A stretch of DNA of 63,003 nt, filler included, from Hausera hauseri (taxonomy: Eukaryota), in the NCBI GenBank assembly GCA_046269625.1. It is 11 parts of 11 records of this genome, joined end to end, with 100 filler letters (N's around TTAATTAATTAA, not from the genome) between each part and the next. Parts side by side here need not be neighbours in the genome. Positions count along the whole stretch, not along the records: positions 35,215 to 40,866 come from JBJURY010213300.1; 10 more parts are not named here. One strand, 5' to 3'. A model generated the notes under the pieces. That model ran no database searches. It had not been told where the DNA came from and saw only the letters and a list, made by a program, of their open reading frames with translations. A program made the position numbers and the translations under genes. The first letter of the stretch is position 1. Every line of letters starts with the position of its first letter. Of the stretch, positions 11,559 to 57,681 are shown piece after piece.

Positions 11559-11806
11559 ATAGATGTATTTGAACGGTTAAACAGAACGATATCTTGTTAT
11601 TATTTTTAAACCACAAAAATTGAATTTTTTTTTATTGATTCCTATTTTAACTTTTTGACAACAATATTACTTCATAAAAAAGTATTTGTACATATATATA
11701 CACATATACACTGAGTGTCTAGCACGTTGACTGTCTAGTAGACGAGATTGATTTCTGAAAGGAGAATGTTGAAGAATTGTAAGATGACGTAATCACACAT
11801 TTGAGA

Positions 11807-13354: not shown

Positions 13355-13465
13355 CATTCACTCAATTTAATATACTAAATTTGTACACATAAACTAATAA
13401 ACATTTATTTACTCCAATCAAATTAATATTAACTATTAGTCAATGTCCATCTCTGGTAAAATTGT

Positions 13466-13738: not shown

Positions 13739-14289
13739 CCTGGTTGAGTTTCCGCTTGATATTTAATGTATTGCAGTATATTTTCACGCCTTACCAGATG
13801 TCGAGATATTATTGATATAGCTACTGGGATATCCTGATNNNNNNNNNNNNNNNNNNNNNNNNNNNNNNNNNNNNNNNNNNNNTTAATTAATTAANNNNNN
13901 NNNNNNNNNNNNNNNNNNNNNNNNNNNNNNNNNNNNNNCTGAGAGTTAGAATGGATGTGGTTCTGGATGGGTAATTGGTGAGAGAAAATGATACGCACAT
14001 GCACGGTTAATTGGGCGGAGATAGGAAGCATACAGATACGAAAGTGATACACACAACCAAGTGTACTGTGGATTCAAAAGGCTTTTGCGTCAAACTTTTT
14101 GTTTAAATTTCGCGACAAATTCTTTTGTTTAAATGTCACGAAAACGCCATACTAGAATTATTGACATTATACAAATTTACTCTTAAAAAATCTTAACCGT
14201 ACTATGACTAAAAATCATACAACTGTACCAACAAAATAAGACAGTAAAATATTTGTTCCAAAATATACAAAGGAAATTAATTATATGCA

Positions 14290-15680
14290 ATAATATGCAT
14301 AGTCCACACTTGTTCTTAATCCATTACCGTTTATCATTAAAGGGGTTCAGTGCCTTTTTCGAAGCGATGGTCATGAATTGGTGGTTCTTTGTACCAATTC
14401 TCTCCTTGTCAACAATTGTCCTACAACCAGTTTCGTATGCTTGCAGATAACTGTTATATTGCTAATCTATCTGTTTCCAATTAATTCCTTTATATTTCAG
14501 GATTGATTTGTTTTGTGTTTTCAGAACGTAACATTTCGGCCGTAATAAAATTTTCTCTTGATACTGAACACAACCCTTACGTCTTTAAATTTCCCTATCA
14601 CAGCTGAAAATCGAGATGAGTACAGTGGATCACTTACGTCACAGGTGGACGTGTCCAGCTACGCATTTTCAATCATTGCCGATAAAAGTTTTAATCATAA
14701 ATCAACACCACAGCACTCAATAAGTTATCCGTGTCACAGGCATTGATATTAATTTCACAGTTAAACTGTTGCTTATAAGTTTCCGAGTCGATGCAGTTCA
14801 ACTCATCCGCAACTTGTAAAGATTAAGAACAGCTTGACCGATGTACGAGGGCCTGTCTAAAATAATTACACATTTATCGAGGAGAACGGCAACTAGGTTA
14901 TCATCTATAGTAATGCTCTCCTTAAAATGCATTTTGTTAGTATATGTAATAAGCTTCTTAGTATTATTACACAGCCTCAAGTTGGACCTTTTCACATTCT
15001 ACACTGTTTTGCCATGTAAGCTATTTTTTCAGCTTAAAGAAATCTTTCTCAGAAGGATTATTTGCTTTTAGTAGTGTTTAAATTAATATAATACTTAAAC
15101 ACAACCCTGGTCAAATTGAACAGTACGATGAACTCTTTCAACAACGGCATCTAATTCCGTGAAAACTGCAAAACCGATAGTGAATGACATAGTTGGTTTT
15201 GCGCTTGTGTGTCAACAATTTTTTACCTGTTGATCCAAGAACACACTGATTAATTAGGGTTAAAGCAGCTGATCTAATTTGTCATATTTGTCAGACGGAA
15301 TACTTAAATCTACCTCAAATACTAAGCCTCCTTAACAGTATCTAGATAAAGCAATTGCTCAATCAGACATCAATTTATCGTCATCGTAAATCCATGTCAA
15401 ATTCGTAAACAGCAGAGGTTGAGACAAAGCCCAGTCGTACAAATTATTTACATCTATATATGAGACTGGTACTTTTATTGCTGGTAACTCTGCTTATTTA
15501 CAAATGTTATGCCACTGCGAATACCCGATAGAAAGGAATTGTATATTTAAGATATTGAATGAGTTCAATCCTAAATGGACTAGATTTCAATGTTGTTGAA
15601 ACCGAGAACTGAAACGTAGTTAACGGCTGCTAAACCATCCTTCAACTTCTTTCCTAAGCCGATCAAATACATCTAACAAT
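14290..15680 (-). pseudogene. polB: Polinton/Maverick protein-primed DNA polymerase B, C-terminal half, decayed
   Basis: YIDVNNLYDWALSQPL and ILDRPSYIGQAVLNLYKLRM motifs, with many stops and frameshifts. Confidence 0.85.
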
Positions 15681-15779
15681 TATATGTCGAGTTTCATGTA
15701 TACTAACATAATACAAAAGATTGTTACACGTGTATCTCGACCATTCAAGTTGCGCATTCTGATAATCACTATCGCTAAC

Positions 15780-15896
15780 TGTGGTGCCCACAGCGGCCGG
15801 CGCCCTCTGTCCCATTTGGTTGTACACGTCCGGGCGTCCGTTGCCGCCGTGTCGGGCCCATAGTCGGGTCCGATCTTCCGCCTCGAGATCACCACG
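15780..15896 (+). repeat. Short GC-rich Gypsy LTR copy (~117 bp) with no adjacent internal domain
   Basis: TGTGGTG...CACCAC ends; clearly similar along its length to the LTR at 56526-56642, which follows a PPT. Confidence 0.85.
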
Positions 15897-16627
15897 AGAT
15901 AGCGATGCCTAATCAGTCTTTGGGAGAAAAGCATAAAGATGGCATTAGAGGCTCTAAATAAAGATCCAGAATCGGAGGTTTACTCTCAGTCAAGTTGGTT
16001 TGATTCAAATGTTACTCGCTGACCGCCGTTAGTCGTCGTACGGATCAAATGAGCATAATAACGTGAAAGACGATCGAATCAGTTCACTTGAAAATTCATC
16101 CGAAAAAGCCGGTAGTGTGGGTAGCGGTTTGAGTAATACTCACCGTAATCGACGCAAAAAAACAAAAACCGAGTTATTCTTTTCCAAATGATCCGAAAAC
16201 TAATTTGAAACCTCAACATTCATTTAATGGTAGTGGACATGTGCACGATGAGCAAGATAACATTGGCGAAGAACCTAGCGATGAATCGTAAAACGTTAAA
16301 CATTGCCAATGATCTTTTTTTTCGTCGAACACCTACATGTATATGAACTAATACTCTATCTCTCAGCGATCAAATCTAACTGTTCTTATTTTCATTTTAC
16401 CATGATCTCTCTTGATTTATCTCTATGGATCTTTGTCTATATTTCACTCAGAAAGTCACAAGAAAAGCTCGTTGACAAAAAAATTCGTTCATTTAATCCA
16501 TTCTCCCCTGCGTCATTCAGTTTTTACTGAACGATTTCATGTGGTCAATAACTATGCGGCTCAAGTAGTTTTTATTCTTTTCTACTACATCAGTTTTTAG
16601 AGATAGAAATTCAAATCGGACGACAAA

Positions 16628-17340
16628 ATGAACATTTTACAAGTTATCAAAGAAGACAATGTAGCAATATTAAAATTGTGCATCAAAAAATCCAAAGGGA
16701 TGATCTATGATCATAAAGGACGGAATATTTTCCATTATGCTGCCCAATCCCGAAATTTGGATATTCTCCATGCTGTCAAAATTTTTGGAGTTAATTTTTT
16801 AATATTTTCGGATAGAAAGCCCTATCAACCGATTCATGAAGCCGCAAAATGTGGAAATACCAAAGACGTAAATCTATTTCTAAAATAGGGAGCTTCGGAT
16901 TCAGCGAGGACTGACAATGGTGAAACACCGCTTCACATTGCTGTGCAATTCGAACAGGAAAAAGTAATTGAAATTCTGCCAGAGGAAAGAAATACACTCA
17001 ATGACAATTGACGGAATTACCCCACTTTATATAGCGGTTAGAAAAAAACTTCAACATCAGCAATATTTTAATTCGTGCAGGGGATAACGTAAATGTTACC
17101 GATAACGTTAAAAATTCCCTCTTACACATCTACTTTGGGAATCATGAAAAAATGTGCAAACTGTTGCTGAGGAACGGTGCTGATGTCAATGAAATCAATT
17201 CAAACAACAACACCGCACTCCATGTTGCAATAGTTCAACATTCGTCAGATATTGTGAAACTACTGCATCAGCACAACGCATCATTGGATATCATCAACTA
17301 TACTCAGGAAACTCCGATGTCATTGGCATAGAACATAAAA
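16628..17340 (+). pseudogene. Ankyrin-repeat gene, frameshifted
   Basis: GRNIFHYAA, QPIHEAAKCGN, GETPLHIAV, GITPLYIAV and NNTALHVAI repeats spread across shifting frames. Confidence 0.85.
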
Positions 17341-17814
17341 TCGGAACTTACGACTGACGTCAGAATATCAAATGATCCACAGAAAATCGAAAAATTAAAA
17401 ATCATCAGTAAAATATTAAATATGCTCATCGAGAGCCGAAATTCACTAGCACATAAAGTAAAGATTTTTAATGCTGTAATGAACGTCAACATCAGCAAGG
17501 AATTCAAACGTCCCAGTTACATATGACAGAAGTCCGAAGGATTCGATCATTGTTCTAAATACCCATTTGTTTATTTCACAAAAACAGATTCTTTGTTTTG
17601 TATGTACAAAAAATTCTTGTTTAAATGTGGTAAATAAAATAAAATCAACATTCAATCAATTTTGAGTTTATTCCTGCCATTTTAGTGTAGACACTATTTC
17701 AATCTGAACTTTTGTTTCAGCTGTTTTTTGATAAAAGAATTTCAGTGATTGACATTCGGATTTAAATTTAAATTTATTCAATCCACATTACTGGCATTCT
17801 TTTCTATTTCAATA

Positions 17815-18163
17815 CTAAGGCAGGAAGATAGTGCATTTGTTGTGTGCTGCTCCTCTGTATTTTTTATTTAAATGACCATGATCTCTGACTTTAGAGTTCG
17901 TGTTTCCATCTCTATCCATGTTTAATGATTTACAGACTTCATCCCTGCCGCAGTAATCACAATTTATTGCATCTAGAAAATTGTCACTATCCTTTTTAGT
18001 CATGCTTATTGTCTTATTAATATTAAATATTTTATAAAAGTATCATTTAATTCAATTATTAGATTAACAAATTTTTCAATAACATTTTCACCATAATATT
18101 CAACATATTTTGATTTTATTAATTCAGGATATTCTGATTTTAAATACATTCCAAAACATAATG
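17815..18163 (-). pseudogene. polB: Polinton polB N-terminal fragment (CxxC...DHxH region)
   Basis: CDYC...KVRDHGHLNKKYRGAAHNKC. Confidence 0.8.
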
Positions 18164-21200: not shown

Positions 21201-22110
21201 AAAACATACTTACCCGAAGATTTGTATTAGGCGAAATTCGTATGGCTAAAGAATCAGGCGCCTTGGGGTTTTTAGCCGCGGTACCTGGATCCTTACAAAC
21301 TGATACAGCTGCACTCATATAACGCCATTATCTCTAAGGACGACAAAGGCTATACAGTAAACATTATTAACTTAACACCAGCTTACTTTGTCGACGACAC
21401 CTTACCAACCGACACGTCAACCTCTTTTCTCACTCCTTTACTCCCTGCTATCCCTATGTCTATTGCTACACCACTTCCACCTTTCTCGTCTACGCTTAGT
21501 CGTGCTCCATAATTTTCTAAACTTTCTACTTCTATTCCTATCACTCCCTCTGTATCATCTCCCTCTTCCACTCTTTTACTCAACACAATTCCAATCTCTA
21601 CTCCAACTTTTTCCTCTCTTTCTTTATCCACCACTACACCTGTCATCACTCCTTCGTCTTCTAACACTCTTTTCAATGCCTTTAACCATCCGTCTTCAAC
21701 AATTCTTCTTCCTTCTTCGTCTTCTTTTTCTCTTTATTCTGACTCATCTTCGCACAATACACCACCTACACCTAAATATACCAATTTTTCCCCAACCTAA
21801 ATCTCTGCAAACAAATACATTGCAAAAACACACAACACGCAGAGTCACATTCAGCAAGTATAGCAAAGAAAAATCAGTCGAAGGTATTCAACGTCTTATT
21901 CACACAAAGCTCAGCTAACACGAACACTTTTCGTTTTGCGATTTTTTTCTGTCCTTTTTTTACACTTCATAGCTTAAACTTTGCCACGGGGGTGGTGTGG
22001 TGCCCGCGTCGATCGTCGCCCTCTAATCCATTCAGTTGGGCTCGGTCGGGCTTCCGCTGCCGGCGCGTCGGACACATAAGCAGGTCCCCGATCTTCTGGC
22101 TCGAGACGCG
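18264..22110 (+). mobile_element. Ty3/Gypsy (CsRn1-like) LTR retrotransposon, decayed: PR-RT-RH-IN, S/T-rich tail, PPT, 3' LTR from 21996
   Basis: ILGSDFLSHYNLLVD (protease), PCGDYRQLN and YIDNILV (RT), RYSTFDRELL (RNase H), RFESVHIDIVGPLP and YHPKSNGFLERFHR (integrase). A G-rich PPT precedes TGTGGTGCCC. Confidence 0.93.
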
Positions 22111-23329: not shown

Positions 23330-26300
23330 CTACCGATCATCAAATGAATCACCAACATCCAAGAGCAATTTAAAACCCTTGTCCTGTACCTGACCCAACA
23401 AATCAGGAATATGTACAAAACGTGCAGGACAATCCTCACTGTCAGGATAATTTCCATTATGAAACACGACCATCAAATGGTAACGTTCCTTGTAACTCCA
23501 TGCACATGTCACTTCCTGATGAGACAAATCGAACTGCCGTTTAGTCGGCTGGGTTGTCGCCTTCACCTCCAAATAAATATTATCTGTAGGACCATCCGGA
23601 CCACGTTGCACAGTTAATTTAAAATCATACGGTAACATTGATTCATCATGGTCATTTATCCATCGAATTTGCAGCACCGTCCATTCACCAATGACCATTG
23701 CTGAACGTAATTTGTCATATACCAACTGTTCACCAATTCTCCCTGATTTCATCATTGCCTCTTCTGTTCCTGTAATCCGTCGACATGGTTTCTTTGCATT
23801 GTCCATTGGACTTTCCTTTGCGACAAGTTTCCGCTTAGCCGTTACAGATGTGGTTGCCAATGGAGACGGCGGCATTGAAATGACACCTGCTGCTGATGAA
23901 GGACGACTGACAGTTGGTGTATTGATTGGTATGGCTTCTGACGGTGCCGGCGAATCACAAATGGACTGGCCATCTGCAGGTGACTCGTCGATGTGCACTA
24001 CTGACAAGTCACAGACTTCTCCTTCTTCAAGTGACGATAAACTGATTACATCGGCAGCTGGCTCTTCGTGAGGAGAACAGATCGTTACCGAATCAGCAGG
24101 AGATGGTGGCTGCCAACAAGGACTGGGTCGTTTGTCATTGGTGGTGGTGCCTCCGCCAGCGCCACTGTGGAACATTGCAAATAATTTGTCGATAACAAAT
24201 GATTGTACACGTAATCCGTGTGATCGGACGAACGACGTCAATTGGCTGCTGTCACTCTCTTCCACAAGGTCGAGTAGACCAAAACAGAATTTTCTGAATT
24301 TCGGACGCAGATATCGATGGGTATCTCTATCCAATAGCCACTGGGATAAAGCATCCAAAACTTGTTTGGCTGTGTCGATTCCATCAGCAAGAGGAATTCC
24401 ACCGACTAACAATTCATATTGACCTCCAGCGACATACGAATTACTGTCGCTGACCAATGATACGACAACAGCTCGATGAGATGTGCAATAACTAATTAAG
24501 TCATCGAGAGATGTTGACAATTCAACCATTTCATCTCCCTGTTGAAATTGGACAAGAGCACACAACCAAAGTCCACATTGACCGAGTACGTCACGTGGAA
24601 CATTATAGGCAAACCATCGACTGATAATTTCATCGAGGTGAAGAGACAGACTACGTAAGGAGACGCTAGGTACGAATGAAGTGCGGTTGACAACAGAACG
24701 AGAAGTGGAATCCTCTAAGACTGGCAAACGGGAATATCGACTGATAAATTCGGCTGCAGTGAGATACATATCAGTGTTATATGGATGAAAATTTGTACGG
24801 CAAGCAACATTGTCAATGTATCTACCCATGTCAACGGCAAGGAGGTCGGTATGAGCAGCATGATCACGGACTTGTGAGAATGCATTGACATTGGCAATTG
24901 ATTGCCACATGTAAATACGCATTTTGTCCGTTATATCGCCATAGCAACGGTATCGTCCACTGAGGCATGGTAACAATGGCAAATGTACAAGACTAGTGCC
25001 CGTGCTGATGCCCGTGCCGGTGGCGGTATCGACAGATTGGCAATACAAAAAATGAACCATATTGAATACATCGGTGATAATTTCCATATCGAGACAGGAT
25101 TGTTCAATAGGATGGTCTGGTTGAACGAGCTGCAATAAACCATTTAATGTTGGCCACAGAGCATTAACTGATGGGTACTTATTGACACCGATGATGCCAA
25201 TGAATAGGTCATCCATACCAGCGTATGCAGTGATCAATGGACGCAGACCATCAGTTACGCAATTCGTTGAGGTCATGATTTGCTGTAAATCATCACGGAG
25301 TTGTACAGTACGTGGACGATGCGAAGGTAATGTCCAATAACAACAATTAGCTAATGACAATTGACAGAGATCGGTATCATCAGATCCATAATCATCAGGA
25401 ATAAGCACTAATAACTGACCACCAAGTGCATTACGTAAGCGATTAAATAAACTTTCCATGGTATGTCGTGAGAAATTCTGTATAATCCAACGATATAAAT
25501 CACGTGCCTGAATTCGAGTCAGCATCAATGATTTATGGATAAAAATACGTTCCAATAAAGCATAGACAGCATCAATACCAACATCAGACATCATTCGTAA
25601 TTGATGAGGTAATGCAGCATTACTGAATACAACGGGACAAAATGGAAAATATGCTAATAAACTATCTGGTGGTGTCAATTTATTTGGATCAGCAGTTAGC
25701 ATAAATGATACAGAACAAGGAATAAGTAATTGATTATCGATTAATGGAATTCGATGATCCGGTTGATATAAATCATGAAATGATGCTAATATTGGTATCC
25801 ATGGGTTTTGTTGTATTGTTATAATCCATGGATCATTATCAATATGCGCTGACGATGACGACGATGACATTCGTAACCACCATCGATCAAGATAACGTAA
25901 TAGAGATAAATTTAAACGGGAATTACGCAATGCTAACAGCTGACCAATTTCAGGATAATCAACACCACCATCAGGTAATGATTCACGATACAAACCAAAT
26001 GAAGCACCAGCCATAATAAAAAAGTCACGCCATTCATCAAGTGTACCAGTACGAGTACGAGTACAAATACGATCAGAATCATTATCAGTCAAATATTCAT
26101 CATCAATTACAGAATAATTACAATGTCCATGCAATAAACTGACGGCATTATCAACAGGATCAATAAGACCAGGCAAATGAACATGACTGAGATTCGTACC
26201 ATTACGTAATTCCTTTGTAATGGTACCATCGATGTTATGACTTATGACACAAAATTGCATTTTCTGTAATACCGATTCACGTTCATTACGATTACATTGC

Positions 26301-29300
26301 TCGACAAGAAATTTCGTTGCAGAAATGAGCCAATTCTGATCAATTTTCAATGATAAACCGGGTATAATACAATGATTAATAACAGAAACGGCAGACAGTT
26401 CTGGAATGCCGAGTCGTTGTAAAATATATCGAACCGGATTGACAACAGCAGTTCGTGAGTTTGAAGTTGTCTGAAATCGTTCAATAAAATCCCCATTGAC
26501 AATAAATCGTAATGAGGCAAACGAATCCGATCCAGTTGAATTGATATAATTTGATGATGCGGCACATGATGGGATAAACAAGGGCAATTCGGTATTACGA
26601 ACACTAACAAATTTATCCGGATGACCGAATACTGGCCATAAAGCAATGTCAGCTAATTGAGATAGAATTCTGTTGACGGTAGCCATATTTGTTTCTTGTT
26701 GAAGTGCACCATACAATGATCGAATGAAACAATTAATAAAATTCTCATCACGTACGTCAGTCAAATTTAATGTCGGCAACAAATTGCCAATATGCGATAA
26801 GGAAAATGACTGACAACCGAGCCATTTCAATACGGTTAACGTTCGTTCTGTAGCAAATTTGATAATAAATGGAGATAAACTCATCAATTGTAGTCGATTT
26901 GATAGATGAATATTCGTATCGTCATCGGTAATCGAATGAAGTAATAAGGAAGTCGGCGAACAGAGATTACCATGGCAATCCGGTAACCAATTTAATTGCG
27001 ATAACATTTGTCGTAGTTTATGAATAAGAATGTGAAATGGACTGTCAAATGGAATTTCATTTGGCATTGGGATGCAATCAATAATTCTAATAAGATAATT
27101 GTATGATGATGAATTGTTGTAGATGAGAGAGAACTGTCGGACAGTATCAATAAATATATCCGCTGATTGGCAAATAAGCCATGTATTCCATGGATTATCA
27201 CAAAGGATATCCTCACGCGATGCAGGAATAGAAAAATCCGCATTGATTATAAATCGTAAGCCATAACTGCGAATTGGTAAAAATGCAAATACCGGCTGAT
27301 CATCGTCATCATTATTATCATTATTTGCAGTACAACCACCTTCAATTTGAATTGCTATGGTAATAACAGTGTTATCAATACCAACTGGACTGTGCTGCAT
27401 CAATGTCTCATTCAATACAGCTATTGTTCTACTGCATGTAAACCAAATGTACTTTTCACCTTTATCCGTAACAACAACTCGCTTTTGTGACGAACATTCC
27501 CATTCGTTAAGTTCGATACTGCGTAATAATTTATCACCATCACGCAATACGATACGCCGTATTTTACGCAGAAATAATAGAAGCGACGGTCGAATATGGT
27601 CAGCAATGCCAATACGAATATTCGATGATAACGATGAATTGATCGGTAAGAGAAATGTTGTTTGCGTACCGTATTGGGGCAGTGGATCACACCAAATTGG
27701 AATAAGAGCATTTCCATTGTCGATAGTTTTATCGAATTTCACATGGAATCCATTGGAATGGACTTCTGGACAATCAGATACGAGAAATACCGATTTAAAT
27801 CCAATTCCCTTTCTACCAATTTTATCAGCCCGTTGAGACAATTTCGTACTGCATCCGATATCGCATAATGCTCGAATATCATCTTCAGTAAAACCCAATT
27901 CATTATTCCGTACTTGCAAAACGAGTTTATCATCATTTGCCAAATTGGACAGCCAAATAAATTCCAATGTCGGTACAGAATCATTAGCATATCGATTATC
28001 ATCGGCATTTTGTACTAATTCCAATACGAAATGCATTGGATTAGCATACAAATCTCCAGATAAATGTTCAACAAGTCTTGCCATTCGTTTATTGAAATTA
28101 TCGACGAGTTTACCATCAGTTACGGCTAATTCGATTCCAATACCGAATTCGTTTCGTCGAATATCATCGATAATTCGTTGCTTATCCATGTCATTTTGTT
28201 GCTGTTGTATTATTGTTGTTGTTGCTGCTGCTCCTGCTCCTACTCTTGTTGTTAATGACGACGATGATGCTGATGATAATGTCGTATCAATTCGTAACGA
28301 ATGTTCGTCATCAGATTCGTTATCGATTATTGGTGAATAAATTCCATATTTGACTGGATTGCTATTGACTACGACCGCAACAGACGATGATGGCGGTAAC
28401 GACGGTGGTGACGTAAGGTCCGCTGTCAACGACGACGACGACGATGATGGTGGTGACGTAATAATCGATAATGCCGCAATATGTAATGGATCGGTTGCAG
28501 ATAAACACGTACACAACATTTGTAATGATGAACGGCTGAATAATGTCAACAAATCATTCAATTGTTGTAGAGAATTATCGGAAAACAAATGATGAACGAC
28601 AGGACTGATGAATGATGTGAGGAAAATCAGAAGGAAATCGGAAGGAATGACAGATGGTAAATGACGAATAAATCCAATCCATTCGGTATGCAATTTATCA
28701 TGAAAACATTTGACAAATTGATCAACGATATTGGCCATTACGAAACTGGTAGAAGGATCAGCAGAGCTGATAATAGCAGATATGATATTGGCGACAATGC
28801 GCTCCACTATAGAATTATCCTTGTCAGCAGCGGCAGCATGGAAATCAATATCCAATTGATCCAAATCAATTTTACTATGCAATCGTAATGATCCACAATC
28901 CGTCATAACAACCCGCACATTCATTGATGCAGCCAACAACGCATTGTCATTAACAAATGAATCAATATCACCCCAATGACGATAATAAATCTGTCGCCAA
29001 TGTAATGCCGAACTGATTTCGTGTAGCAAAGGAACAGATGCAATGGATGCCATAACGGCATCGCGTGATGAACACAACAATTTACCCGATGCACATGTTG
29101 CCATTGACATTACCATACGAATATCGACAACCGCCGGTATTCCATCATCCAATAAATGAGACTGATTCAATTGCCGATTATCCCACAATTGTTTCATTTC
29201 ACGGACAACATTTTCTGTCATTTGCAAACCCAATTTCTGCGGTAATGCATGCTGTAACATTTCATCAGCATTACTATCCATTGGTAACATGTGCATTTGC

Positions 29301-29704
29301 CGTATGACGAATGACGGATCAATTGCGATACATTTGCAATGATTGGATACTCCTTCTTTCTCTTTACTTGTATCCTCATTCTCCTTCTGTTTCTGCTGCT
29401 GCTGCTGTTGTTGTTGATTAATTCCATTACAATTTGTCCGTGAACGTAACAAACTCAATTGCTCATCAACCAAATCCAATCCTGACGTATTCAATGGCCA
29501 TCGAGACAAACCAACCATTCGCAAAACGTCCTGCTCAATAGCGATGACGTCATCTATTGACAATTTGTTGTTTGTATTTGTCAATTTTACTGAACGATCC
29601 AAGAACAATGTGGTCATCATTTCCTGACTAATTGGCATGTCTATATCCCCTGACAAAGCCAAGCACTGACGACGACGACGGACAAAACGTGATGGTGATA
29701 ACAA
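23330..29704 (-). CDS. NO VEIN-like protein: sacsin-type GHKL/HATPase domain plus C-terminal DUF3883 (PD-D/ExK-like)
   Basis: 2124-aa open frame with LYANPMHFVLELVQNADDN, NNELGF and IGRKGIGFKSVF. The C-terminus reads GRIGEQLVY...WIN...LPYDF...YLEVKAT...SHQE. Confidence 0.9.
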   Translation of the reverse strand: MLSPSRFVRRRRQCLALSGDIDMPISQEMMTTLFLDRSVKLTNTNNKLSIDDVIAIEQDVLRMVGLSRWPLNTSGLDLVDEQLSLLRSRTNCNGINQQQQQQQQKQKENEDTSKEKEGVSNHCKCIAIDPSFVIRQMHMLPMDSNADEMLQHALPQKLGLQMTENVVREMKQLWDNRQLNQSHLLDDGIPAVVDIRMVMSMATCASGKLLCSSRDAVMASIASVPLLHEISSALHWRQIYYRHWGDIDSFVNDNALLAASMNVRVVMTDCGSLRLHSKIDLDQLDIDFHAAAADKDNSIVERIVANIISAIISSADPSTSFVMANIVDQFVKCFHDKLHTEWIGFIRHLPSVIPSDFLLIFLTSFISPVVHHLFSDNSLQQLNDLLTLFSRSSLQMLCTCLSATDPLHIAALSIITSPPSSSSSSLTADLTSPPSLPPSSSVAVVVNSNPVKYGIYSPIIDNESDDEHSLRIDTTLSSASSSSLTTRVGAGAAATTTIIQQQQNDMDKQRIIDDIRRNEFGIGIELAVTDGKLVDNFNKRMARLVEHLSGDLYANPMHFVLELVQNADDNRYANDSVPTLEFIWLSNLANDDKLVLQVRNNELGFTEDDIRALCDIGCSTKLSQRADKIGRKGIGFKSVFLVSDCPEVHSNGFHVKFDKTIDNGNALIPIWCDPLPQYGTQTTFLLPINSSLSSNIRIGIADHIRPSLLLFLRKIRRIVLRDGDKLLRSIELNEWECSSQKRVVVTDKGEKYIWFTCSRTIAVLNETLMQHSPVGIDNTVITIAIQIEGGCTANNDNNDDDDQPVFAFLPIRSYGLRFIINADFSIPASREDILCDNPWNTWLICQSADIFIDTVRQFSLIYNNSSSYNYLIRIIDCIPMPNEIPFDSPFHILIHKLRQMLSQLNWLPDCHGNLCSPTSLLLHSITDDDTNIHLSNRLQLMSLSPFIIKFATERTLTVLKWLGCQSFSLSHIGNLLPTLNLTDVRDENFINCFIRSLYGALQQETNMATVNRILSQLADIALWPVFGHPDKFVSVRNTELPLFIPSCAASSNYINSTGSDSFASLRFIVNGDFIERFQTTSNSRTAVVNPVRYILQRLGIPELSAVSVINHCIIPGLSLKIDQNWLISATKFLVEQCNRNERESVLQKMQFCVISHNIDGTITKELRNGTNLSHVHLPGLIDPVDNAVSLLHGHCNYSVIDDEYLTDNDSDRICTRTRTGTLDEWRDFFIMAGASFGLYRESLPDGGVDYPEIGQLLALRNSRLNLSLLRYLDRWWLRMSSSSSSAHIDNDPWIITIQQNPWIPILASFHDLYQPDHRIPLIDNQLLIPCSVSFMLTADPNKLTPPDSLLAYFPFCPVVFSNAALPHQLRMMSDVGIDAVYALLERIFIHKSLMLTRIQARDLYRWIIQNFSRHTMESLFNRLRNALGGQLLVLIPDDYGSDDTDLCQLSLANCCYWTLPSHRPRTVQLRDDLQQIMTSTNCVTDGLRPLITAYAGMDDLFIGIIGVNKYPSVNALWPTLNGLLQLVQPDHPIEQSCLDMEIITDVFNMVHFLYCQSVDTATGTGISTGTSLVHLPLLPCLSGRYRCYGDITDKMRIYMWQSIANVNAFSQVRDHAAHTDLLAVDMGRYIDNVACRTNFHPYNTDMYLTAAEFISRYSRLPVLEDSTSRSVVNRTSFVPSVSLRSLSLHLDEIISRWFAYNVPRDVLGQCGLWLCALVQFQQGDEMVELSTSLDDLISYCTSHRAVVVSLVSDSNSYVAGGQYELLVGGIPLADGIDTAKQVLDALSQWLLDRDTHRYLRPKFRKFCFGLLDLVEESDSSQLTSFVRSHGLRVQSFVIDKLFAMFHSGAGGGTTTNDKRPSPCWQPPSPADSVTICSPHEEPAADVISLSSLEEGEVCDLSVVHIDESPADGQSICDSPAPSEAIPINTPTVSRPSSAAGVISMPPSPLATTSVTAKRKLVAKESPMDNAKKPCRRITGTEEAMMKSGRIGEQLVYDKLRSAMVIGEWTVLQIRWINDHDESMLPYDFKLTVQRGPDGPTDNIYLEVKATTQPTKRQFDLSHQEVTCAWSYKERYHLMVVFHNGNYPDSEDCPARFVHIPDLLGQVQDKGFKLLLDVGDSFDDR

Positions 29705-30944
29705 TTCAACAAGTTACGTAAGCAATGGCGGAAAGAAATCCAAATGAATTCTGGCACTGGATACGTCATCAGACAAACATGCAATAACACTTGAACATAC
29801 CGAGATGATGACAGCACAGCAGTTTTTTGTGGATTGCAGAAGATACCGTTTGTGATAGACCACCTGACAATCAGTTGGTAAATTGATGTGTCACCATGAT
29901 AGATAAATTGAGGATTTCTGTGAGCGTCATGATGCTGCATTCCTTCTTGTCAACAAAATAAACTGAAAGAAATGTGTGGATATCGTTTAAGAAAGGCATA
30001 AATATAACTTGATGCCAATAATTCAGTGGAACTTTCCGTAACTCGTCATCAGCATTAGGAATTAACGCAAATTGTCCTTTATTACTGTCAGTCAGACAAA
30101 TGTCAAACGCACCAAATCCGATAGCCAAATGAAATAATTCACCAAATAACGCCTGATCCTGAAGCATATTCATTAACGTACGTACGGCAATTTGCGGGTC
30201 TGTTGTGGATGTTTCTGCAGTCGGCTACAGTTTGTGACTGGCCATTACAGGACGTTCACCATTCAAGAATGGATTGAAATTTGTCTCCGATACATCATAG
30301 AATGTTATTCTCGTCAATTTATCTATTCGATCTGTCAACAGTCCAATCACTTGCAATGACTGGCGAATGGCTGCCATTGTATCACGTCGTAACAATTAGG
30401 AAGTTTTCGTATTCAGCAATTTTTTCTGGATCGAGTCTAATTTATCTGTGAAGGCAGCAGTTTTCAATGTTTTGAAATTGGTTATTTTGATACCAAGATT
30501 ACGTGCAGATGGCATGACGTATTTCCTGCATAAGAAATCCAGGAAATGACGTTCATTATTGGTGGTAACGACGGCATATTCTTCATCATGATTGGAAGAT
30601 TCTGATGTTGGGAATTCGGCACAATCGTAGATAAGATTTGAGAGAGTAACTGTTGGCGGAGGAATTGTCATTGATGGTGTACTAAGGATTCTTTCACGGA
30701 CTAAAGGAATCTTTTCCAATGGACCTAACATACAACGGACATTAACAGCACCTCCACATATTTTATCAGCCAGTCCACAGACATCGCAAAATGTGACAGC
30801 AGGACGTAGCTGTAACATTGCCTCTATATGGGAGGTAAAACTTTGAACAAGATCGATATGTTGTCTCATTTGTGGAATACTGCGGAAATTGTGATAAAAA
30901 TATTGTTTTATGGAATCTGGTTAGATAGTCTAAAAACATATTTC
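29705..30944 (-). pseudogene. Disrupted 5' portion of the NO VEIN-like gene
   Basis: Collinear protein-like frame with in-frame stops near 30396, 30226, 29871 and 29714, plus one frameshift near the homopolymer at ~29823-29828. Confidence 0.6.
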
Positions 30945-31123: not shown

Positions 31124-31243
31124 TATGGTGCCTGCGTCGACCGTCGCCCTCTGGCCCATTCGGTTGGGCACGGCCAGATTTCCGCTGCTGGCGCGTCGGG
31201 CACATAGGCAGGCCCAGATTTTCTGCCTCGAGGCTGCACCATA
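31124..31243 (+). repeat. Short GC-rich Gypsy LTR copy (120 bp)
   Basis: TATGGTGC...GCACCATA inverted ends; similar along its length to the LTR at 21996. Confidence 0.85.
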
Positions 31244-33690: not shown

Positions 33691-33955
33691 TGTTAATGTT
33701 TTTAGTCCGTCTAGATCAAGTGTGTTCAAAACACAACAATTCCCACAGGTGCTGGAGCACTGCACACAAAACAAACCGATATGTATAAGAACGACTTTAG
33801 ATGGCATGTATTTAATACAATCATGGTTTTATAAATGCATGCCATCTAAAGTCGTTCTTATACATATCGGTTTGTTTTGTGTGCAGTGCGCCAGTACCTG
33901 TGGGAATTGTTGTGTTTTGAACACACTTGATCCAAATGGACTAAAAACATTAACA
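33691..33955. repeat. Near-perfect inverted repeat with ~124-bp arms and a 17-nt loop
   Basis: 33691-33814 is the reverse complement of 33832-33955 with few mismatches. Confidence 0.95.
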
Positions 33956-35214: not shown

Positions 35215-38200
35215 ATATACCGTATCTCCAGTGAAATCCAGGTCCAATATAGGGATGTTTTTAGGATTCGCGACCCATTTGAAATTATCATATTGCAATT
35301 GGGCGCTTTTTGCATATCTATACGAGTTGTTGGTATCCAGGTATGATATATATATGAGGATTCCTTGGATGGATCATACTGTGCCATATACTTGTTATTA
35401 GCCTCGCTATACCGATGAATGGCCTGGCAGATTTTACCTCTAATTCCTCTCTCGATCATAAGGATCATGTCGTAATCCTTAATGATCTGCAGCCTACTAC
35501 CAGTATATTACAGCATAGCTGCCCAACTCATTCCTGTAGCGATAAAGAAATGAGCCAAATCCAATGCATGGCTCCTCATTGTAACATCCATGAAACTCTC
35601 AAAGACATTTGTCAGAAGCAGCACTTCCGTCTTGAGGTATATGTAGTTGTATTCCCCTATTCTTCGGCAATGGAATTCATGCCAGACGTTCTAGGCATGT
35701 TGGTAGTCTTTATTACTGATATCACAGTCCGATAACTCTCTATAAAAGGCATCCTTTGGAGGTAATGATGTCTCATCCAGTGTGTCCCGTGATGGTATGT
35801 AGTCGTAGGGAAACACTCCTTTCCTCTTGACCTCGTAAAAGTTAGTTAGGAAGAACCGCTTCGTCTCCGTGAGTTCTTCTGCAGGGAGGTTCTTCACTAA
35901 ACTATCCAGTGACAAGCTCATAAAGCAGAAGCTCTCTATGAATTGAAGTCTAATGCGGCCCACATGTTTGGTAAATGTGATGTATTTTTCCTCACTGTTT
36001 GGATTCACATCTATATTGTGATAATCGATTGTCTTATTCTGTGACGAATTGATATCGGTATTCTGTATAATGACATCTGCGTCCAATCCGGGAAAATCGG
36101 CAATCGAGTTAGACTGAGAGTTATTAAACGTTATCGGTCCGATTGAATTATCATGATGGCTCGTACCTTGATGTGATATAGTAGAAATGATCTGAGACTT
36201 AAGCGAATCGACAGAATACGAAGTAGATTACCGAGATTCCGAAAGATTAATTTGATTTGAATTAACCACAAATGCACTGTAAGTGCTTTTGTTGGGCAGG
36301 ACTAAATTGAGATCGGTGATTTCCACAATCGTTGGAGTTAAGAGATCATCACGAACATTGTCGGAAATTGATATTAGGTAAGGTTCTGGATCTTCTCAGA
36401 TTAATTCTGGTACAAATGACATGTAACTTGTTGGAAGATTCAGAATACGAAAAAACGTCTTTTCTTCAGGTGTCAAAGACACATTATTTGTCGTTTGATT
36501 ATTATCTTGAGAATAATTTATGTTACATTAAGACTCATACTGACTGGACTTTTCAGTTTTGCAATAGTTAATTCGATTGAGAAAAGTTAGTGCGTCATCA
36601 TTGTCATCAAATTCCAACAAAAATGAATGCACATCGAAATTACCAATTTTCCACCTTTCACTTTTAATTGAAACTCGATGAGTGCCAAGACGATACAAAT
36701 TAATCCGATTTAAATCGAATTTCACGTCCAATGTTTCGCCGCTTTCAATTTTTATGTACAGAATAAATTCCTGAGGTAAAATATCAATTTTGCGATCAAG
36801 ATTATCAATAAGTAAATCGAAAATTTTCGAACCCTCACTGTATCTTAACAAAGCAACGTCTTCAAAACACGAGGTCATCAATTAAAATAGTAAATCCGAT
36901 TTCAATAAAAAATCTAATTCCGCATTCTGTATTTAAATATTTAAACAACCATAATTTTTTTACATTAGTGATTTCACATATAGTTTACCAGTTGGGTGAA
37001 TGTGGGCACCACATATATTACCATCAATGTTGCCCAGTTTCCGAACAATGAATTGAGAATCATAGTCACTGAAATTATGGATCGCTACAGGCACATATGT
37101 GCATGTTTTGCAGCGAAGATTGCAGTTTTTGCATGCTGCGCCCCGATATGCACCTGTAAAATGGCAGTGATCCCTGACTTTATGATTATCCTTGGTGAAG
37201 GACTTGTCGCACAAGTAACATGTTGTTGACTTGCGCCATTCTTCTTCTTGCTGCGTCAACATGTTCATATTATCCTTTTGCTGCTGATGCATGTTTTCAA
37301 GCTTATGAGCCATGTCTTCAAGTCTCTTCATGAAATGTGCTACTGCAGTTGGACTTCTGAATAAAAATGGTTCACTGTCCATTCCTTTGGTATACATGCA
37401 ATACGATGAGAGTTAATGATATTGGTATGCCGTTGTGCTGCTATGTAAAGAACTGGGAGGGCAGCTGTGAACTGGCAGGATAATAGCTTCGAAGTCGCAA
37501 CAGATAACTACTGGGACCTTGATCTTGTCGAACTCATTGAATTCAATGTAGTCTTCGTTGGGAAATTCTGGCCGTACACAGTAATTGTTGCTGCAGTACA
37601 TCTTGTGCACTGCAAGCTTGTCCACTGCTGAATCACCACTGAAATGAGACAGGCATTGCTTACATATCTCTATTTGTCCATGATGATTCGTAATTTTGGA
37701 TTTGACTAGACGCTCAAAGTTCTTGATCCAAACATAATGTTTCTTTTCTCCATCATTTAGTAGCTGCAGATCCCTATGATCTTTAAATTCAGTATCATAT
37801 ATCTGTAGAGGATAAAATTTATCCTCCTCATCCAATCCAAATATGTTAGTTGATATTTTGTTAATTCGACTGAACTTCTTAATTTCATCTAAGGATGGAG
37901 GGAATGTGATACACCAGAAGTCATAGTTGTGCTGCACATCCTTATATTGCCAAACTCCTGAAGCATTATGTTGATCAGACACTAGTTTTGATAGAATGGC
38001 ATACATGAAACACATTGTCATTATTATGTACATTGATGCATGCTTTTTTATTAGCGATCTAATCGGGGAGTTGAGTATATTAACTACCCCGCATGGGGGA
38101 GAATCTGTGCATATACACAAGCAATCTCTTGATTATTACCAGAGTCCATCCGCTCTTCTTACTCTGGCTCTCATCAGCTTCACGGATCAGCTTTGCATGC

Positions 38201-38460
38201 TCTTCATGCAGCCATTCTACTGTATTGGTGGCTTCAAAAATGGGTCTATTTCTAGTCTTGAAGGCCCTTTTGGACTCTTCGCCATTAACACTGACGTATG
38301 TGGCATTAAGTTTCATATTAACCTTAAGGGACGTGAGCTCAGCTATGTTGTCCTGGAGAATCCCTACTGTTTCTTCCTTTGTGTACTCAAGAAACTCCTC
38401 AATGGTTGTTTGACCAGCTACATCAATAACATATCTGCGGCATTTTCTATTTAATGCTGC
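35215..38460 (-). pseudogene. polB: Polinton/Maverick protein-primed PolB, decayed and interrupted by an insertion at 36017-37013
   Basis: CFMYAIL, KHYVWIKNFERL, VICCDFEA, KVRDHCHFTGAYRGAAC, HNFSDYDSQFI, RKGVFPYDY and IERGIRG motifs. Confidence 0.92.
36017..37013 (-). mobile_element. 997-bp cargo insertion with LTR-type ends and a 5-bp TSD, carrying a non-transposon ORF (36528-36881)
   Basis: The minus strand reads ATATA|TGTGGTGCCCACA...TATCACA|ATATA. Removing the insert and one TSD restores polB codons D-G-N-I-D-V-N-P-N-S-E-E-K-Y. Confidence 0.85.
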
Positions 38461-38475
38461 CGCATCAACTGGCCG

Positions 38476-39127
38476 CTATCTTTGACTTTTTGATGGAGCC
38501 GCTACGCCTGATGCGTTTGATGTGCGTTTTAGTCCTGCATCTGGATGTACTGCTGCATCTGGCTGTGGTACTGCAGGCTGTGATGCTGCAACTGGATTAT
38601 GTTCATTAAAGATGATCTTCTTTGACTTTGATGTGAAGTCAGTCAGATGATGTTTGTGATCTTTATAAAACTGTATGTATTCTCCATGACATACAGCCTC
38701 ATCCTGGGCAGATATAATAAATGATCCTATTGAATTTGTGACCATAATAGCTCCTCATGGTATTGTGGCAATTCAGAGGGCTGTGTATTGCACATGTGCA
38801 ATACACATATGAACTGCACCCTCGATTTTTCTTTGGCACGAAAGTCGTTATTGGCATATTGGTACTGAATAATTGTTTTTTTGACTTGGTGAAGGAAATC
38901 AAATGCTGTTTATGGACGTTGTAAAAGTCGTCATAATTGGTTTGGCACACTACCGCACATGTAGGGCATATATAATACTGAACCCTGTTGTACATATGGT
39001 TGAAATACTTCTTCATAATATTGTGGCAATTTTCAGATTCATGGATTTGAGCCATGCAATAGCTGTAGAGTTTGCACATCTGAAAATCAATTAATTATTT
39101 GAGGAGCACAATTAAAAAGCTCACCAT
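38476..39127 (-). CDS. Polinton gene or PolB N-terminal extension with a duplicated Cys/His module; likely 45-nt intron at 39080-39124
   Basis: Two copies of C-x3-IH-x3-NCHN...YYICP...FYxxHKxHLxxFTxxxK. The minus strand reads ATG|GTGAGC...TTTTCAG|ATG. One frameshift. Confidence 0.55.
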
Positions 39128-39904
39128 TCCTTGAAGTGATTTTGGAAATAATGAAAAATATATACATATCACCATGCACTGACCCGCTTATTGATCGGTT
39201 TTAATGCACTGTTGTTTTAAAGCATCAATTAAATTAAATACAAGGCGACGCCAAATTTAAGGTCTTCGACAATTGGGATTCAAATGAATTTATTAGATTC
39301 TTCGAATAATGCATACTTGACCGAATATTCGAGTTCGAATAGCTAAATATTCGACTTGTAAGCTCGAATTCGAATATCTAACATTATATTCCAATTCAAC
39401 ATGCATGACTTTCTAACCCGCCCCGCTATTAGATTTATAGATTTCCGCTTAACTGGGCTTTAAATGCAGATTTTGCTTGATTTGAAATATTGATTTTGTA
39501 TCTATATAGTACATTTTCATGGAATAACTTTCATGTATAAGGGGGTTTTTATATATTAGGAATCGACTGCCGCTGTTATATTTTTCGAATAGTTGGATAT
39601 TCGATATTCGAACCAAAAAAACTATTCAAATTTTGAATATCTGACTTGAGATTCAAGATTGCCATATTCCATTTCCTATCTGTCCCCGCTAATTATAATA
39701 TCGAATTTTGCTCCCTTAGGGCCTAAAAAACCTATGCGGGTTCTCCCTCAGTTACACTTTGAATCGATATTATTCGATAACTAATCGATAAATTTAAATT
39801 CTAATTGCACATTTATATACTGCACCATGTTTGTGTTCGTATGCACCCGGTCACATGTCCTAATCACCAATATTGGAAATATCACAAATCCCGTATTATT
39901 GATT

Positions 39905-40157
39905 TTTTCACTTGCACATGTGCTGCACACCTGCACTGTGCACTAATCGATTATCACCTTGTCCAGATCGATTCGATCAATTATGCCATGTGCGACGATC
40001 GATTTGTCAAATGTGCATAGCGACGGGGCCTAGCGGCACCGTCGCCTAGCACACTACCGATCCATAGTACACAGTGTGCACTATGGATTGACACATGTGC
40101 AAAATTGATTAATCGATTACCCCCGGGGTGGGACAGAATCCCCATTTTTGCACTACT
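39905..40157. repeat. Putative Polinton terminal inverted repeat ending CTACT
   Basis: About 250 bp similar to 41290-41575 on another contig; the similarity stops at ...CTACT in both. AGTAG/CTACT is a Polinton-type terminus. Confidence 0.7.
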
Positions 40158-41582: not shown

Positions 41583-42310
41583 TCACATCCATCTTCTGAC
41601 AATTTTATCTTCCTCCATAATTCCTTTGAGATTGTTATGAATTTCGTGAACCTTATCGTACTTGCGGTAAGTTCTTCCGTGCAGTTCGTTATAGATCTCA
41701 CGGTATATTGCCTTAGAATTCAGAAGGAACACTGGACTGGTATGATAGGAAATGCGAATAAGACATTTTAAGAAATGAAATATTCTAAGGAAACATCGGC
41801 ATTTATACTTTTTCATATTCGATATCAACCAATCAGAACGCTCTGAGTCATATTGAAAGTAAGATATATTTAATGCAATTGTATCAAATATATGTTCATA
41901 GTCTAATGACTTTATTCCGAGAATAATAATTTTTCCAGTATGGAAAACATTAACACACAGCGGATTGAATTCTGTTAGACGTAATGCTGGAAATAATTCT
42001 GGTTCATATGAACATGGTACTTTTTGTGCCAATTCATTCAGATTGATATTTTCATTCCGATTCATACTTATGGTAATTGACTGAAGCCTTTCTAATTTAA
42101 TATTTAGTGGTAAATCTGTTTCCACAATAGGTTTTTTACAGCCGATAATACGACAACTACCGCGTGGAAACATGATGATTTTGTGATAGGCATAATTAAA
42201 AATACACTGCTTTGGTTTCCAGTCGTTAAATTGGAGATGTTGTACATGTTTTGCATCTGTTTGCGCCTTATAATTAATATTAACTAAAATTTTTAAAATG
42301 TCACACTCAT
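41583..42310 (-). pseudogene. Divergent core-only TATA-binding-protein-like gene with a frameshift just after the ATG
   Basis: LVNINYK...KIIMFPRGSCRIIG (repeat 1) and INLNELA...SYEPELFPAL...VNVFHTGKIIILG (repeat 2, TBP signature). Confidence 0.85.
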
Positions 42311-42314
42311 ACTT

Positions 42315-43259: not shown

Positions 43260-45671
<2,412 letters not shown>

Positions 45672-51959: not shown

Positions 51960-52470
51960 TTACGCCAAAGGTATTGAAATTAGACAAAGATGTGAGCAAG
52001 AATTCAGAAGGCTTCTGTAGCCCATGGCGTTGTCGTTGAAGAATCTTTGAATGAATGAATGGATTGACGGCTCAGTAAGCTTGAGAACAGCATTATAAAG
52101 TTGAGTATATGGGTCGGTGTGATGAAGAATATCGATGATATTGATAGTTTTAGTTTTAATGGAGGCTGGTAAATGATAAAAGAGACTGTTGGCTTTGGAT
52201 AAAGAGTCGACGACGCCTTGTGATTGGAGGCAGAATTGATGCAGTTTTAGCCAAGTTTGAGTATAGTTTTGGCTGTCGAGGAAGTATTCGGTACAGGGTG
52301 AATGAGTGAGGAGTGTGTGTTTCACGCACCTTGTTTGGGTCAGTGAATGATAAGGATTTGTGGTTTGGTGAGTTTGTACGTAGTATTAATTGTGGGTGAT
52401 GAATCTATGCCACCACGGATACAGAAGTGAATGTGAAGGCAGACACAAGTTGTTGACGGTTGGAGGAGTT
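51960..52470 (-). mobile_element. Gypsy gag N-terminus (end of UBL plus DUF7041-like capsid), inverted relative to pol
   Basis: CLHIHFCIRGG, then TWL...KANSLFYHLP...DPYTQLYNAVLKLTEPS...MGYRS, similar to CsRn1-type Gag. Confidence 0.7.
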
Positions 52471-55400: not shown

Positions 55401-56642
55401 CAGTGATACTTCGTTGCAATCAGCAAATACTCATTTTGTAGACTATTACACAGAAATAAACCTCACATACCCTACAATTTATATATTGCCAAGTTCGTCT
55501 GGCTAAANNNNNNNNNNACAACATCATCATTCTCAAAGATGACAAAGAAGTAACAGTCCACATCAACAACACTAAACCGGCTTTCTTCATTGGCAACACG
55601 TCTCCCATCGAAACCACTTCTCCACCAACATCTTTACACGACGTGCAGCAATACAACAATTCAGCTACCATCTCTGCTCAATTTCTTAACCCACTTTTAC
55701 CACGTTTTCTCCCAAGACTTCTAATTTAATTTTTCTGACAGTTCAGCCTCTTTTTTCCCATCCCATTTTGCACCTTCAAGCCCTCTAACACCTCCTCCAT
55801 CCCCGTGTGACAATTTGCTTTCTCCTTTTACAACACCTCCTCCGCCAGACATCTCTTCCACTTCAGCAATCTCTCCAACATCTTGCTCTCTTTCGTTTTG
55901 TATCTCTTCGCCATCTTCTCTCTCTCTTTCTCCTTCCACGCATTCCTCTTCTTCGGCGCTTTCTTTCTTCTTTTCTCTTCACACGTCGACTTTTACCCCT
56001 TTCATTTCCACTTCGCAACTTCCGCCTCTCTCTACTTCTATCCCATCTCTTTTCCTCTCTCTACAACTACCTCTGTTTCATCTTCCACTTCCACTCTTTC
56101 ACCTTATACAATTTCAAATTTTACTCCACTACTCATCTCTCTTCTTTCACCCTCCACTACACCTTTCATCATTCCTTCGTCTTCTAACACTCCCTTGGAT
56201 ACCTTTAACCATCCGTCGTCAACAAGCTCTCTTCTTCCTTCACCTTTTTCTTCTCTTCATTCTGACTCGTCTTTGTACGACGCAACACTCACAACAAAAT
56301 CCAACAATTTTTTTCTCCAACTTCAAAGTCTGAAAGCAAACACATGACATAAATACAAAACACGCAGAGTCACATTCAGCAAGTATATCAGGGAAAAATC
56401 AGTAGAAGGCACCCAAAGTCTTGTCCACACTAAGATCAACTGACATATATAATGTTTTGTTTAGAGCTTGTCTCTTTCCAACTATTTTCGTCTTCATAAT
56501 TTTCACTTTGCCACAGAAGGGGTGATGTGGTGCCCACAGCGGCCGGTGCCCTTTCGCCCATTTGCTTGGGCACAGCCGGGCCTCCGTTGCCACCGCGTCG
56601 GGCCCATAGTCGGGACCGATCTCCCGCCTCGAGATCACCACG
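52475..56642 (+). mobile_element. Ty3/Gypsy (CsRn1-like) element, decayed: PR-RT-RH-IN, S/T-rich tail, PPT, 3' LTR 56526-56642
   Basis: FLIDTGA, PWSLPLHVVPKKDG, YIDD, RFEFVHIDLVGPLP and YHPQSNGLLERFHR motifs; PPT AGAAGGGGTGA followed by TGTGGTG. Confidence 0.94.
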
Positions 56643-56996
56643 AGATAGCCGTGTTAGTTCTCACTCAAGTAACACAGATCTATCGACATACGATTATTCT
56701 ACTCAACTTATTGAATTCAATCGAACTCAAATTAGTCCTGGTTTTCTCAATCAAAGGATTTCATCTTCATCGTCTCAAAAAGAAGGTGATGAAGTTATGG
56801 ACAGCTCTATTCCACCTATAACTGAAGATACAGACTCACTATTTGACAATTCAATACTTCCTATTCCATCAGTTATGACGTCTAGTAAAGACAGCGNNNN
56901 NNNNNNNNNNNNNNNNNNNNNNNNNNNNNNNNNNNNNNNNTTAATTAATTAANNNNNNNNNNNNNNNNNNNNNNNNNNNNNNNNNNNNNNNNNNNN

Positions 56997-57681
56997 GAAT
57001 ACTGGAAAAGATGGAGGAAGGAACTGTTGATAAATTGGAGGACAAAGGAAAAATGGCAAAATGGGAAAACTGATATCAACCTTGGGGATAAAGTTTGGGT
57101 ATTGGAGACAACAGAAAGAAGAAACAGGTGGCCAATAGCAGAAGTGACTCAAATATTCCCCGGACGGGATGGGGTCGTCCGAGTCGTTGAAATCTCACAG
57201 AATGGTGAGACCTATCGGCGATTCATCAACAAAATCTGTAAATTGGAGAGTGAGTCGAATGAATGGAACAACATAAGGATGGAAAACATTGGTGAAGAGA
57301 CATCCATGGACCGGATTGCCCAAAGGAGGGGGGAAATGTTAAAACCAGATCGACTGGTTGGGGAATCCAGTCAAACTTCAAAGGGAGACACGTAAGGGTT
57401 GTATATAAAATTGTATATAATAAAACTATATATACTGTATATATGTGTGTATGTATGCGTATAAATGTTTGTGTTCATGTCAGTTGTACTGTGCATGAAA
57501 AGTTGTACAAACTAAGGGTTGTTAAAGGTTAAAATGGATGAATGAGTATGCGTGACATAAAATAGAGTGCAAATAATAATTGAATGATCTCTGGCAGGGT
57601 TCGGGGAACTGGGAAACCAGGAACGGCCATAGAAAACTGTTGTTTATATAACTACTTGAGAATAGATGGAGAATTCTAACA
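56997..57681 (+). mobile_element. BEL/Pao LTR retrotransposon 3' end: DUF5641, PPT and LTR ~57337-57681
   Basis: KW...INLGDKVWV...WPIAEVTQIFPGRDGVVRVVEI; purine tract AAAGGAGGGGGGAAA followed by TGTT...AACA. Confidence 0.85.

Follow-up and report, generated by a model that had tools for sequence, protein, structure and literature searches.

What is the 997-nt sequence that interrupts a Polinton-type polB gene in this stretch of Hausera hauseri DNA, and how did it come to be there? The original prediction was that a Gypsy long terminal repeat (LTR) family had mobilised a piece of host gene capped by only 13 nt of LTR. The window, by which we mean the whole stretch analysed (positions 1-63003; 63,003 nt), consists of 11 contigs of 4-9 kb each with ten N44-TTAATTAATTAA-N44 linkers between them, and adjacency across the linkers is artificial. 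The insert lies on the contig at 35215-40866. The resident LTR heads with which it was compared, the TGTGGTGCCC heads, number four besides the insert (15780, 21996, 31124 and 56526) and lie on four other contigs. Two related sequencing runs, X1 and X2, were used for depth, contig joints and sequence differences; at the insert and polB the X1 material comprised 15 of 192 joints, 12 of 2979 loose ends, 40 of 918 differences and 16 of 75,481 pieces. Papers are cited by accession for what the available portion of each text states.

The insert (36017-37013, minus strand) reads from TGTGGTGCCCACA at its start to TTATCACA at its end, has a GC content of 33.7% compared with 40-41% in the flanks, and sits as a TG..CA element between two copies of TATAT (36012-36016 and 37014-37018). 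The coordinates predicted for this perfect target-site duplication (TSD) within polB hold. The direct repeat around the insert is 6 nt long (TATATT), hence TSD readings of 4, 5 and 6 bp fit equally, and TG..CA falls at both insert ends under the 5-bp reading only (general TSD ranges are given in PMC8220671). Pairs of TGTG and CACA with a 5-bp repeat number 6 among 4826 in the window, with about 4.7 expected. Because such pairs occur at chance level the TSD is no proof by itself, and the proof comes from empty sites. Among the X1 joints listed, three contigs skip from 36011 to 37024 and one from 35996 to 37014, which implies a single copy of TATAT at the unoccupied site. An empty-site polB allele, sought as a check on the original prediction, is thus present among the contigs of this related run. 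Furthermore, 13 records among the X1 loose ends listed end at 36018, and X1 depth over the insert is about 100-fold below that of the flanks. The insertion is genuine.

By its homology to protein-primed polB and its endonuclease VII domain, the target is a Polinton-type pPolB. It is decayed and lies on the minus strand in two portions, one upstream of the insert (37019-38238, with polB homology and an Endonuclease_7 domain) and one downstream of it up to the contig end (35215-36011, with polB homology). The two flanks are collinear with a viral-contig polB (residues 259-609 and 618-835), gave E values of 3e-53 and 5e-46 in tblastn against the L001 polB and profile scores of 107 and 251 bits, and also align to adjacent portions of a second polB in the window. 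Summed depth, which in X1 and X2 is not copy number, is about 1e5 in X1 and 1e3-8e3 in X2 over Polinton-type sequence at 35215-40128, and suggests that this sequence exists in an extremely large number of copies in the related genome. Among possible targets polB is just a very abundant one. The idea that such insertions load genes into Polintons finds no support at this site, where the interrupted polB carries several stop codons of its own and the insert breaks an already stop-ridden gene instead. Tandem units of about 325 nt at 9438-10438 and 39260-39415 are 72-78% related to a stretch upstream of the polB on the insert contig.

The insert is itself repeated. X1 covers at least 36098-36935 of its interior, as many as 29 contigs coinciding at a single position, and the ratio of insert depth to polB-flank depth is 0.0070 in X1 and 0.0076 in X2. 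Median X1 depth over the insert is 1148 compared with about 5 for single listed pieces, or about 200 times as much. The insert sequence is a repeat in both related runs; from the depth we infer a copy number of order 100 in the related genome, and depth together with contig counts points to dispersal. Such repetition is what a solo LTR predicts and is at odds with single-copy host DNA carrying minimal caps; the insert is hence likely to be a solo LTR with a probably captured piece rather than host DNA merely capped by 13 nt. A contrary possibility raised with the original prediction, that of an ordinary long LTR of another family, agrees with the repetition in both runs, but the ends of the copies are not visible there. 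We consider that the insert is a solo LTR of a Gypsy lineage, probably CsRn1-like, whose LTR of about 1 kb consists mostly of what is probably a captured, predicted PH-like gene piece, and we give this reading a probability of about 0.5. Several traits of solo LTRs occur together here, namely TG..CA ends, a TSD and a pol-free repeat of about 1 kb, and the insert has no terminal inverted repeats (TIRs), internal direct repeat or transposase.

The 5' tip of the insert (37001-37013, minus strand) matches the start of two LTR heads, 15780 and 56526, at every base, exactly as predicted, these heads being on other contigs. The window has three exact copies of this 13-mer and no more (15780 plus, 56526 plus and 37013 minus), and extension of the match, including extension by way of a small deletion, is not significant (p 0.21-0.24). 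The first seven bases, TGTGGTG from 37013, fit the CsRn1-clade 5' integrase motif TGTGGYG (PMC3601003, Table 3), so that only 6 of the 13 bases are family-specific; the chance of these six further bases matching the resident family is about 1e-4. The insert's other end also agrees exactly over 13 nt with a repeat at 39945-39957 that is unrelated, which calls for caution on 13-mer identities. That end, TGTGATA, had been described as an att-like look-alike, a description not sustained by comparison with the LTR heads, to which it has no match beyond chance (p 0.39-0.73). In the element's own orientation the 3' end (36017-36038, minus strand) is coding to the last base and has AATAAG at +976, 22 nt from the terminus and in the zone of LTR polyadenylation signals, a weak point in favour of an LTR. 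The final TATCACA fits the CsRn1-clade 3' motif MSYYAMA, which ends in ACA, ATA or AAA (PMC3601003), at 5 of 7 positions by eye.

A 13-nt identity without extension is also a feature of a different origin, in which the insert would be an integrase chimera, one-off or recurrent, by the mechanism originally predicted: plus-strand synthesis would have copied 13 nt of U3 before a switch to a co-packaged foreign template, and the integrase would have used one true end and one cryptic ..CA end. The length of the identity matches that of integrase recognition, specificity being placed in the terminal 8-15 bp (PMC3601003), and the reading frame of the insert breaks off at the final base of the element. 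The 15780 head likewise begins a foreign block inside a polB, but this block has no demonstrated end or TSD. Non-Ty DNA with TG..CA ends and a 5-bp TSD has laboratory precedent with Ty1 (PMC2939329), but under overexpression or in a Ku mutant, and the animal LTR retrocopies described in the available text of PMC5131818 keep both LTRs. As the donor must moreover be multi-copy to explain the X1 and X2 depth, we regard a chimera as unlikely.

The exact 13 nt would also be accounted for if a short resident solo LTR of about 120 nt had inserted first and a later break had been repaired with about 970 nt of filler templated by a multi-copy gene, with deletion of almost the whole LTR interior. We think this quite unlikely. 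It would explain a possible intron in the insert, and the 31124 copy hints at short LTRs, but a multi-copy donor is needed and both breakpoints are required to lie within about 13 nt of the ends. The last 10 nt of the insert match the heads at about +107-116 at 7 of 10 positions by eye, a likeness at the 3' end that is not significant. Both insert ends also fit TGTNR and the target is AT-rich, which together with the repetition of the insert sequence and the 5-bp TSDs made by TDD-4/5 (PMC2836005) would suit a non-autonomous Ginger2/TDD-type DNA transposon carrying a gene piece and moved by a Gypsy-like transposase. We hold this to be highly improbable: the terminal inverted repeat of the insert is only 4 nt long compared with about 40-300 bp in Ginger, by which this origin is largely excluded, and the identity to LTR heads behind a Gypsy pol would be left unexplained. 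Other routes we consider improbable.

The resident heads give some idea of the lineage to which a solo LTR would belong. Two of the four lie downstream of a decayed Gypsy pol and a purine tract: the 3' LTR head at 56526-56649 (plus strand), behind which a Ser-rich frame stays open as far as the contig end, and that of a sister subfamily at 21996-22106 (plus strand), followed by RRM-coding frames. The resident pol has the domain order RT, RNase H, integrase, and this order together with the end motif suggests that the Gypsy lineage is probably CsRn1-like. The head at 15780-15903 (plus strand) is inside another decayed polB and is followed by at least 1.6 kb that includes an ankyrin relic; the second end of the block was not found, and the block adds at least 1.6 kb beyond what polB needs. 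The head at 31124-31243 (plus strand) may be a solo LTR of 120 nt or, alternatively, a head followed by a 142-codon frame, and its flanks match at 3 of 4 positions. Its ends, TATGGTGC..GCACCATA, form a perfect 8-nt terminal inverted repeat that differs in mirror fashion from the other heads.

Homology among the four heads stops at about +107 to +135. Of five heads, the insert's included, four (the insert, 21996, 31124 and 56526) are followed by a sense frame of at least 80 codons starting within 250 nt, 15780 being the exception; the background rate is 0.27-0.32, and a post hoc test gives P 0.02-0.04. The content of these frames differs, with RRM after 21996, 142 codons after 31124 and Ser-rich sequence after 56526; the ankyrin relic lies farther from its head. 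A wider reading would make the LTR a swappable cassette, in which subfamilies keep the integrase tip (down to 13 nt) together with differing host-gene pieces (PH-like, RRM, ankyrin or Ser-rich) that are read into Gag, so that each insertion or solo LTR would scatter fragments, into Polintons among other places. We find this doubtful. The resemblance of 31124-31243 to a 120-nt solo LTR counts against it, since resident LTRs may on that account be short and the sequence after the heads may be flank.

Several other candidates in the window were tried and rejected. Resumption of polB near 17330-17520 as the second end of the 15780 block had a score that shuffled sequence also reaches; a TAAC duplication that would define a 279-nt solo LTR at 15780 is one of four such 4-bp matches and has no polB behind it; a head-like match at 11924 lies within a coding frame. 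An LTR 19-mer matched 31 loci, all unrelated beyond the pattern, and an LTR 21-mer had no hits in metagenome contigs. Structured RNA was rejected for the LTR heads, which gave z scores of -1.0 to +0.4 and no Rfam family match. The polB broken by the 15780 head and the ankyrin-relic block (about 16630-17330) is a third, more diverged Polinton relic at 13939-18163 (minus strand). A gag-like frame at 51960-52385 (DUF7041, E 0.0012) is on the minus strand, inverted relative to a protease-pol that starts near 52500. The stretch at 56997-57395 we take by eye to be a BEL/Pao-type integrase C-terminal region, followed by a purine tract and TGTT, an LTR start unlike that of the insert.

The insert is largely coding. 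A 117-codon ORF (36528-36881) and a Ser-rich continuation had been predicted and both are present, but the continuation is no separate decayed piece: the two form a single 288-codon frame with three stops. Of 2000 Markov nulls one reached this frame, and 85 of 2000 reached the 117-codon ORF alone. The frame is stop-free onward through the element's last base, and about 87% of the insert is one reading frame. On the minus strand it comprises a globular part of 116 aa from the ATG (36531-36878), weakly predicted to be PH-like, and a continuation (36017-36530) that becomes increasingly Ser/Thr/Asn/Asp-rich and has no stop at the element end. Between the frame and the 13-nt tip is an AT-rich leader (36882-37000, minus strand), which may be U3/promoter sequence or contain a candidate intron of 62 nt (36988-36927; GT-AG, 19% GC, branch-like CTAAT). 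The leader could be an AT-rich promoter as readily as contain this canonical-looking intron; an intron on the sense strand, if real, would argue against repeated passage through RNA.

The three stops (36528-30, 36396-98 and 36228-30) each overlap a site where the whole of the X1 depth carries a different letter (19, 10 and 24 contigs; probability by chance about 3e-4). The insert differs from X1 at 19 sites among the 40 of 918 differences listed, distributed 5/7/7 over the codon positions. Since the stops are private to this copy and the differences are even across codon positions, relatives probably keep the frame open, and the copy at 36017-37013 has probably decayed neutrally.

Pfam returned nothing for the insert at E<=0.1, hence it contains no transposase or RT, in keeping with the original prediction. 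A parental gene of 36528-36881 did not emerge from the protein, viral-contig or metagenome-contig searches. A word search among longer proteins gave 0 of 241 candidates, phmmer against 1.84 billion representatives gave two hits, both bacterial repeat proteins that we judged spurious, and homology was found in 0 of 28 stretches of viral contigs and 0 of 164 of metagenome contigs. PDB sequences gave five repeat-summed hits only, exact look-up found 0 of 5 window proteins, and a 20-mer from the insert had no hits in viral contigs. As no parent gene was found, a captured host gene is unproven and the cargo is possibly an orphan gene of another mobile element. A single-sequence model of 82 residues has strands followed by a C-terminal helix, with a pLDDT of 47.6 (45 for an earlier 116-aa fold). 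Its top VIA structural rows are mostly PH, FERM-F3 or RanBD, but at Z<=4.3; Foldseek with this model gave nothing at E<=0.001. Atlas scores for the cargo reach at most 0.83 and serve as leads only, and a second Atlas search gave no usable match. On these models a PH-like cargo is no more than plausible.

The solo LTR reading is consistent with a model of three steps. A template switch during reverse transcription would first have moved a gene piece into a master element's LTR, after which nothing but the 13-nt tip recognised by integrase was still alike to sister families. In the full element the frame would have read through the 5' LTR and on into the interior (gag). Finally, the family would have amplified and one copy integrated into polB, where recombination between its LTRs may have left the solo copy that has decayed neutrally since. 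Counting against a solo LTR are its length, 997 nt being long for the CsRn1 clade, and the uneven X1 depth, which drops from about 2400 close to the 3' end of the insert to 300-530 close to its 5' end; a full-length element with two such LTRs, a PBS or gag was not seen.

The claim of a mobilised gene piece thus stands in part. An integrase-type insertion, gene-like content other than pol and an LTR-derived first 13 nt are all retained, while the minimal-cap host DNA is not, the insert being a repeat in both runs. The general gene-trafficking route proposed with it gains nothing from the window, in which we found no second capped cargo bounded by a TSD, or from the searches for a parent gene. 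Nor does it at present explain the intronless genes, as the NO VEIN-like and CDC48 contigs have no LTR-head-like 10-mer. Two intact, single-frame intronless genes are present, a NO VEIN/sacsin-like gene of 2127 codons (23330-29713) and CDC48/p97 (43260-45671), the latter scoring 1337 bits against human-type p97, 1251 against plant and 1160 against yeast chains, which points to an animal as the probable host. The window further contains a related pair of TBP-like coding stretches, one at 41583-42314 (PF00352, E 2e-12) and the other on a different contig at 59962-60059, an inverted repeat at 33691-33955 (124 nt, 95% complementary, 17-nt loop; its Rfam MIR825 match is far below the gathering score) and, by eye, decayed RING-like and coiled-coil frames at 11800-13836 (minus strand), upstream of a 401-codon frame at 10371-11576.

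If the solo LTR reading is true, gene capture has taken place inside the LTR itself and not between LTRs. Solo LTRs, the commonest end state, would then carry gene fragments and be mis-annotated as host gene families, and the locus would show how little LTR sequence cross-related families share. Should the insert instead be a repair filler or a chimera formed once, it would be a curiosity for which laboratory precedent exists.

Among known systems the insert is most directly compared with solo LTRs of CsRn1-clade Ty3/Gypsy elements (PwRn1, AgCR), with which it shares TGTGGYG, a short TSD, a pol-free repeat of about 1 kb and empty sites. It is however about three times the mean clade LTR length of 330 (PMC3601003; CsRn1-like LTR lengths are 146-381 in PMC2582038), and about 87% of it is a single frame that exits the 3' end. 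CsRn1-like elements are reported to have 4-bp TSDs and ends in AAA or ATA (PMC2582038), whereas the TSD of the insert is ambiguous (4, 5 or 6 bp); the 4-bp reading fits but shifts the end by one base.

In their content the chimeras of LTR-mediated retroposition (Tan et al. 2016, PMC5131818) are similar, in that a partial gene piece is joined to LTR sequence, likely by template switch, and can be amplified again. In those chimeras, as far as the available text describes them, the gene piece replaces the internal ORFs between both LTRs, whereas in the insert it lies inside the TG..CA unit. In the insert we found neither direct repeats nor sequence from the interior of an LTR element, and with no LTR pair flanking the gene piece it is not an LTR-mediated retrocopy by structure, though similar in working. 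Friedl et al. 2010 (PMC2939329) report that non-Ty DNA bearing no more than TG..CA ends is integrated, with a 5-bp TSD, when Ty1 integrase is overexpressed, and that yku70 cells give rise to Ty-plasmid composites. The insert resembles such products in being foreign DNA with the same ends and TSD, but they are single laboratory events and it is a natural repeat. Ginger1 and Ginger2/TDD share with it TGTNR ends, a 4-5-bp TSD and, for Ginger2, an AT-rich target (PMC2836005); unlike them, it has neither TIRs nor a transposase. A TRIM, with two short LTRs around a PBS and PPT (PMC4558846), was considered and rejected, the insert having no internal direct repeat. The extra ORFs of rotifer LTR elements are, in the available text of PMC5408684, separate third ORFs beside gag and pol.

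Among the papers that literature searches brought up, with subscription literature mostly outside the scope, none appears from its title or abstract to describe a Gypsy LTR of an invertebrate that consists mostly of a captured frame. Coding frames within LTRs are familiar from other retroelements: the sag frame of MMTV lies in U3, and GAG of Ty1 begins in the 5' LTR and crosses the LTR end. The insert is like both in having a coding frame within the putative LTR, and like Ty1 in that the frame also crosses the LTR end. MMTV sag and Ty1 GAG are element genes, however, whereas the frame of the insert is an orphan, predicted to be PH-like, that covers most of the unit.
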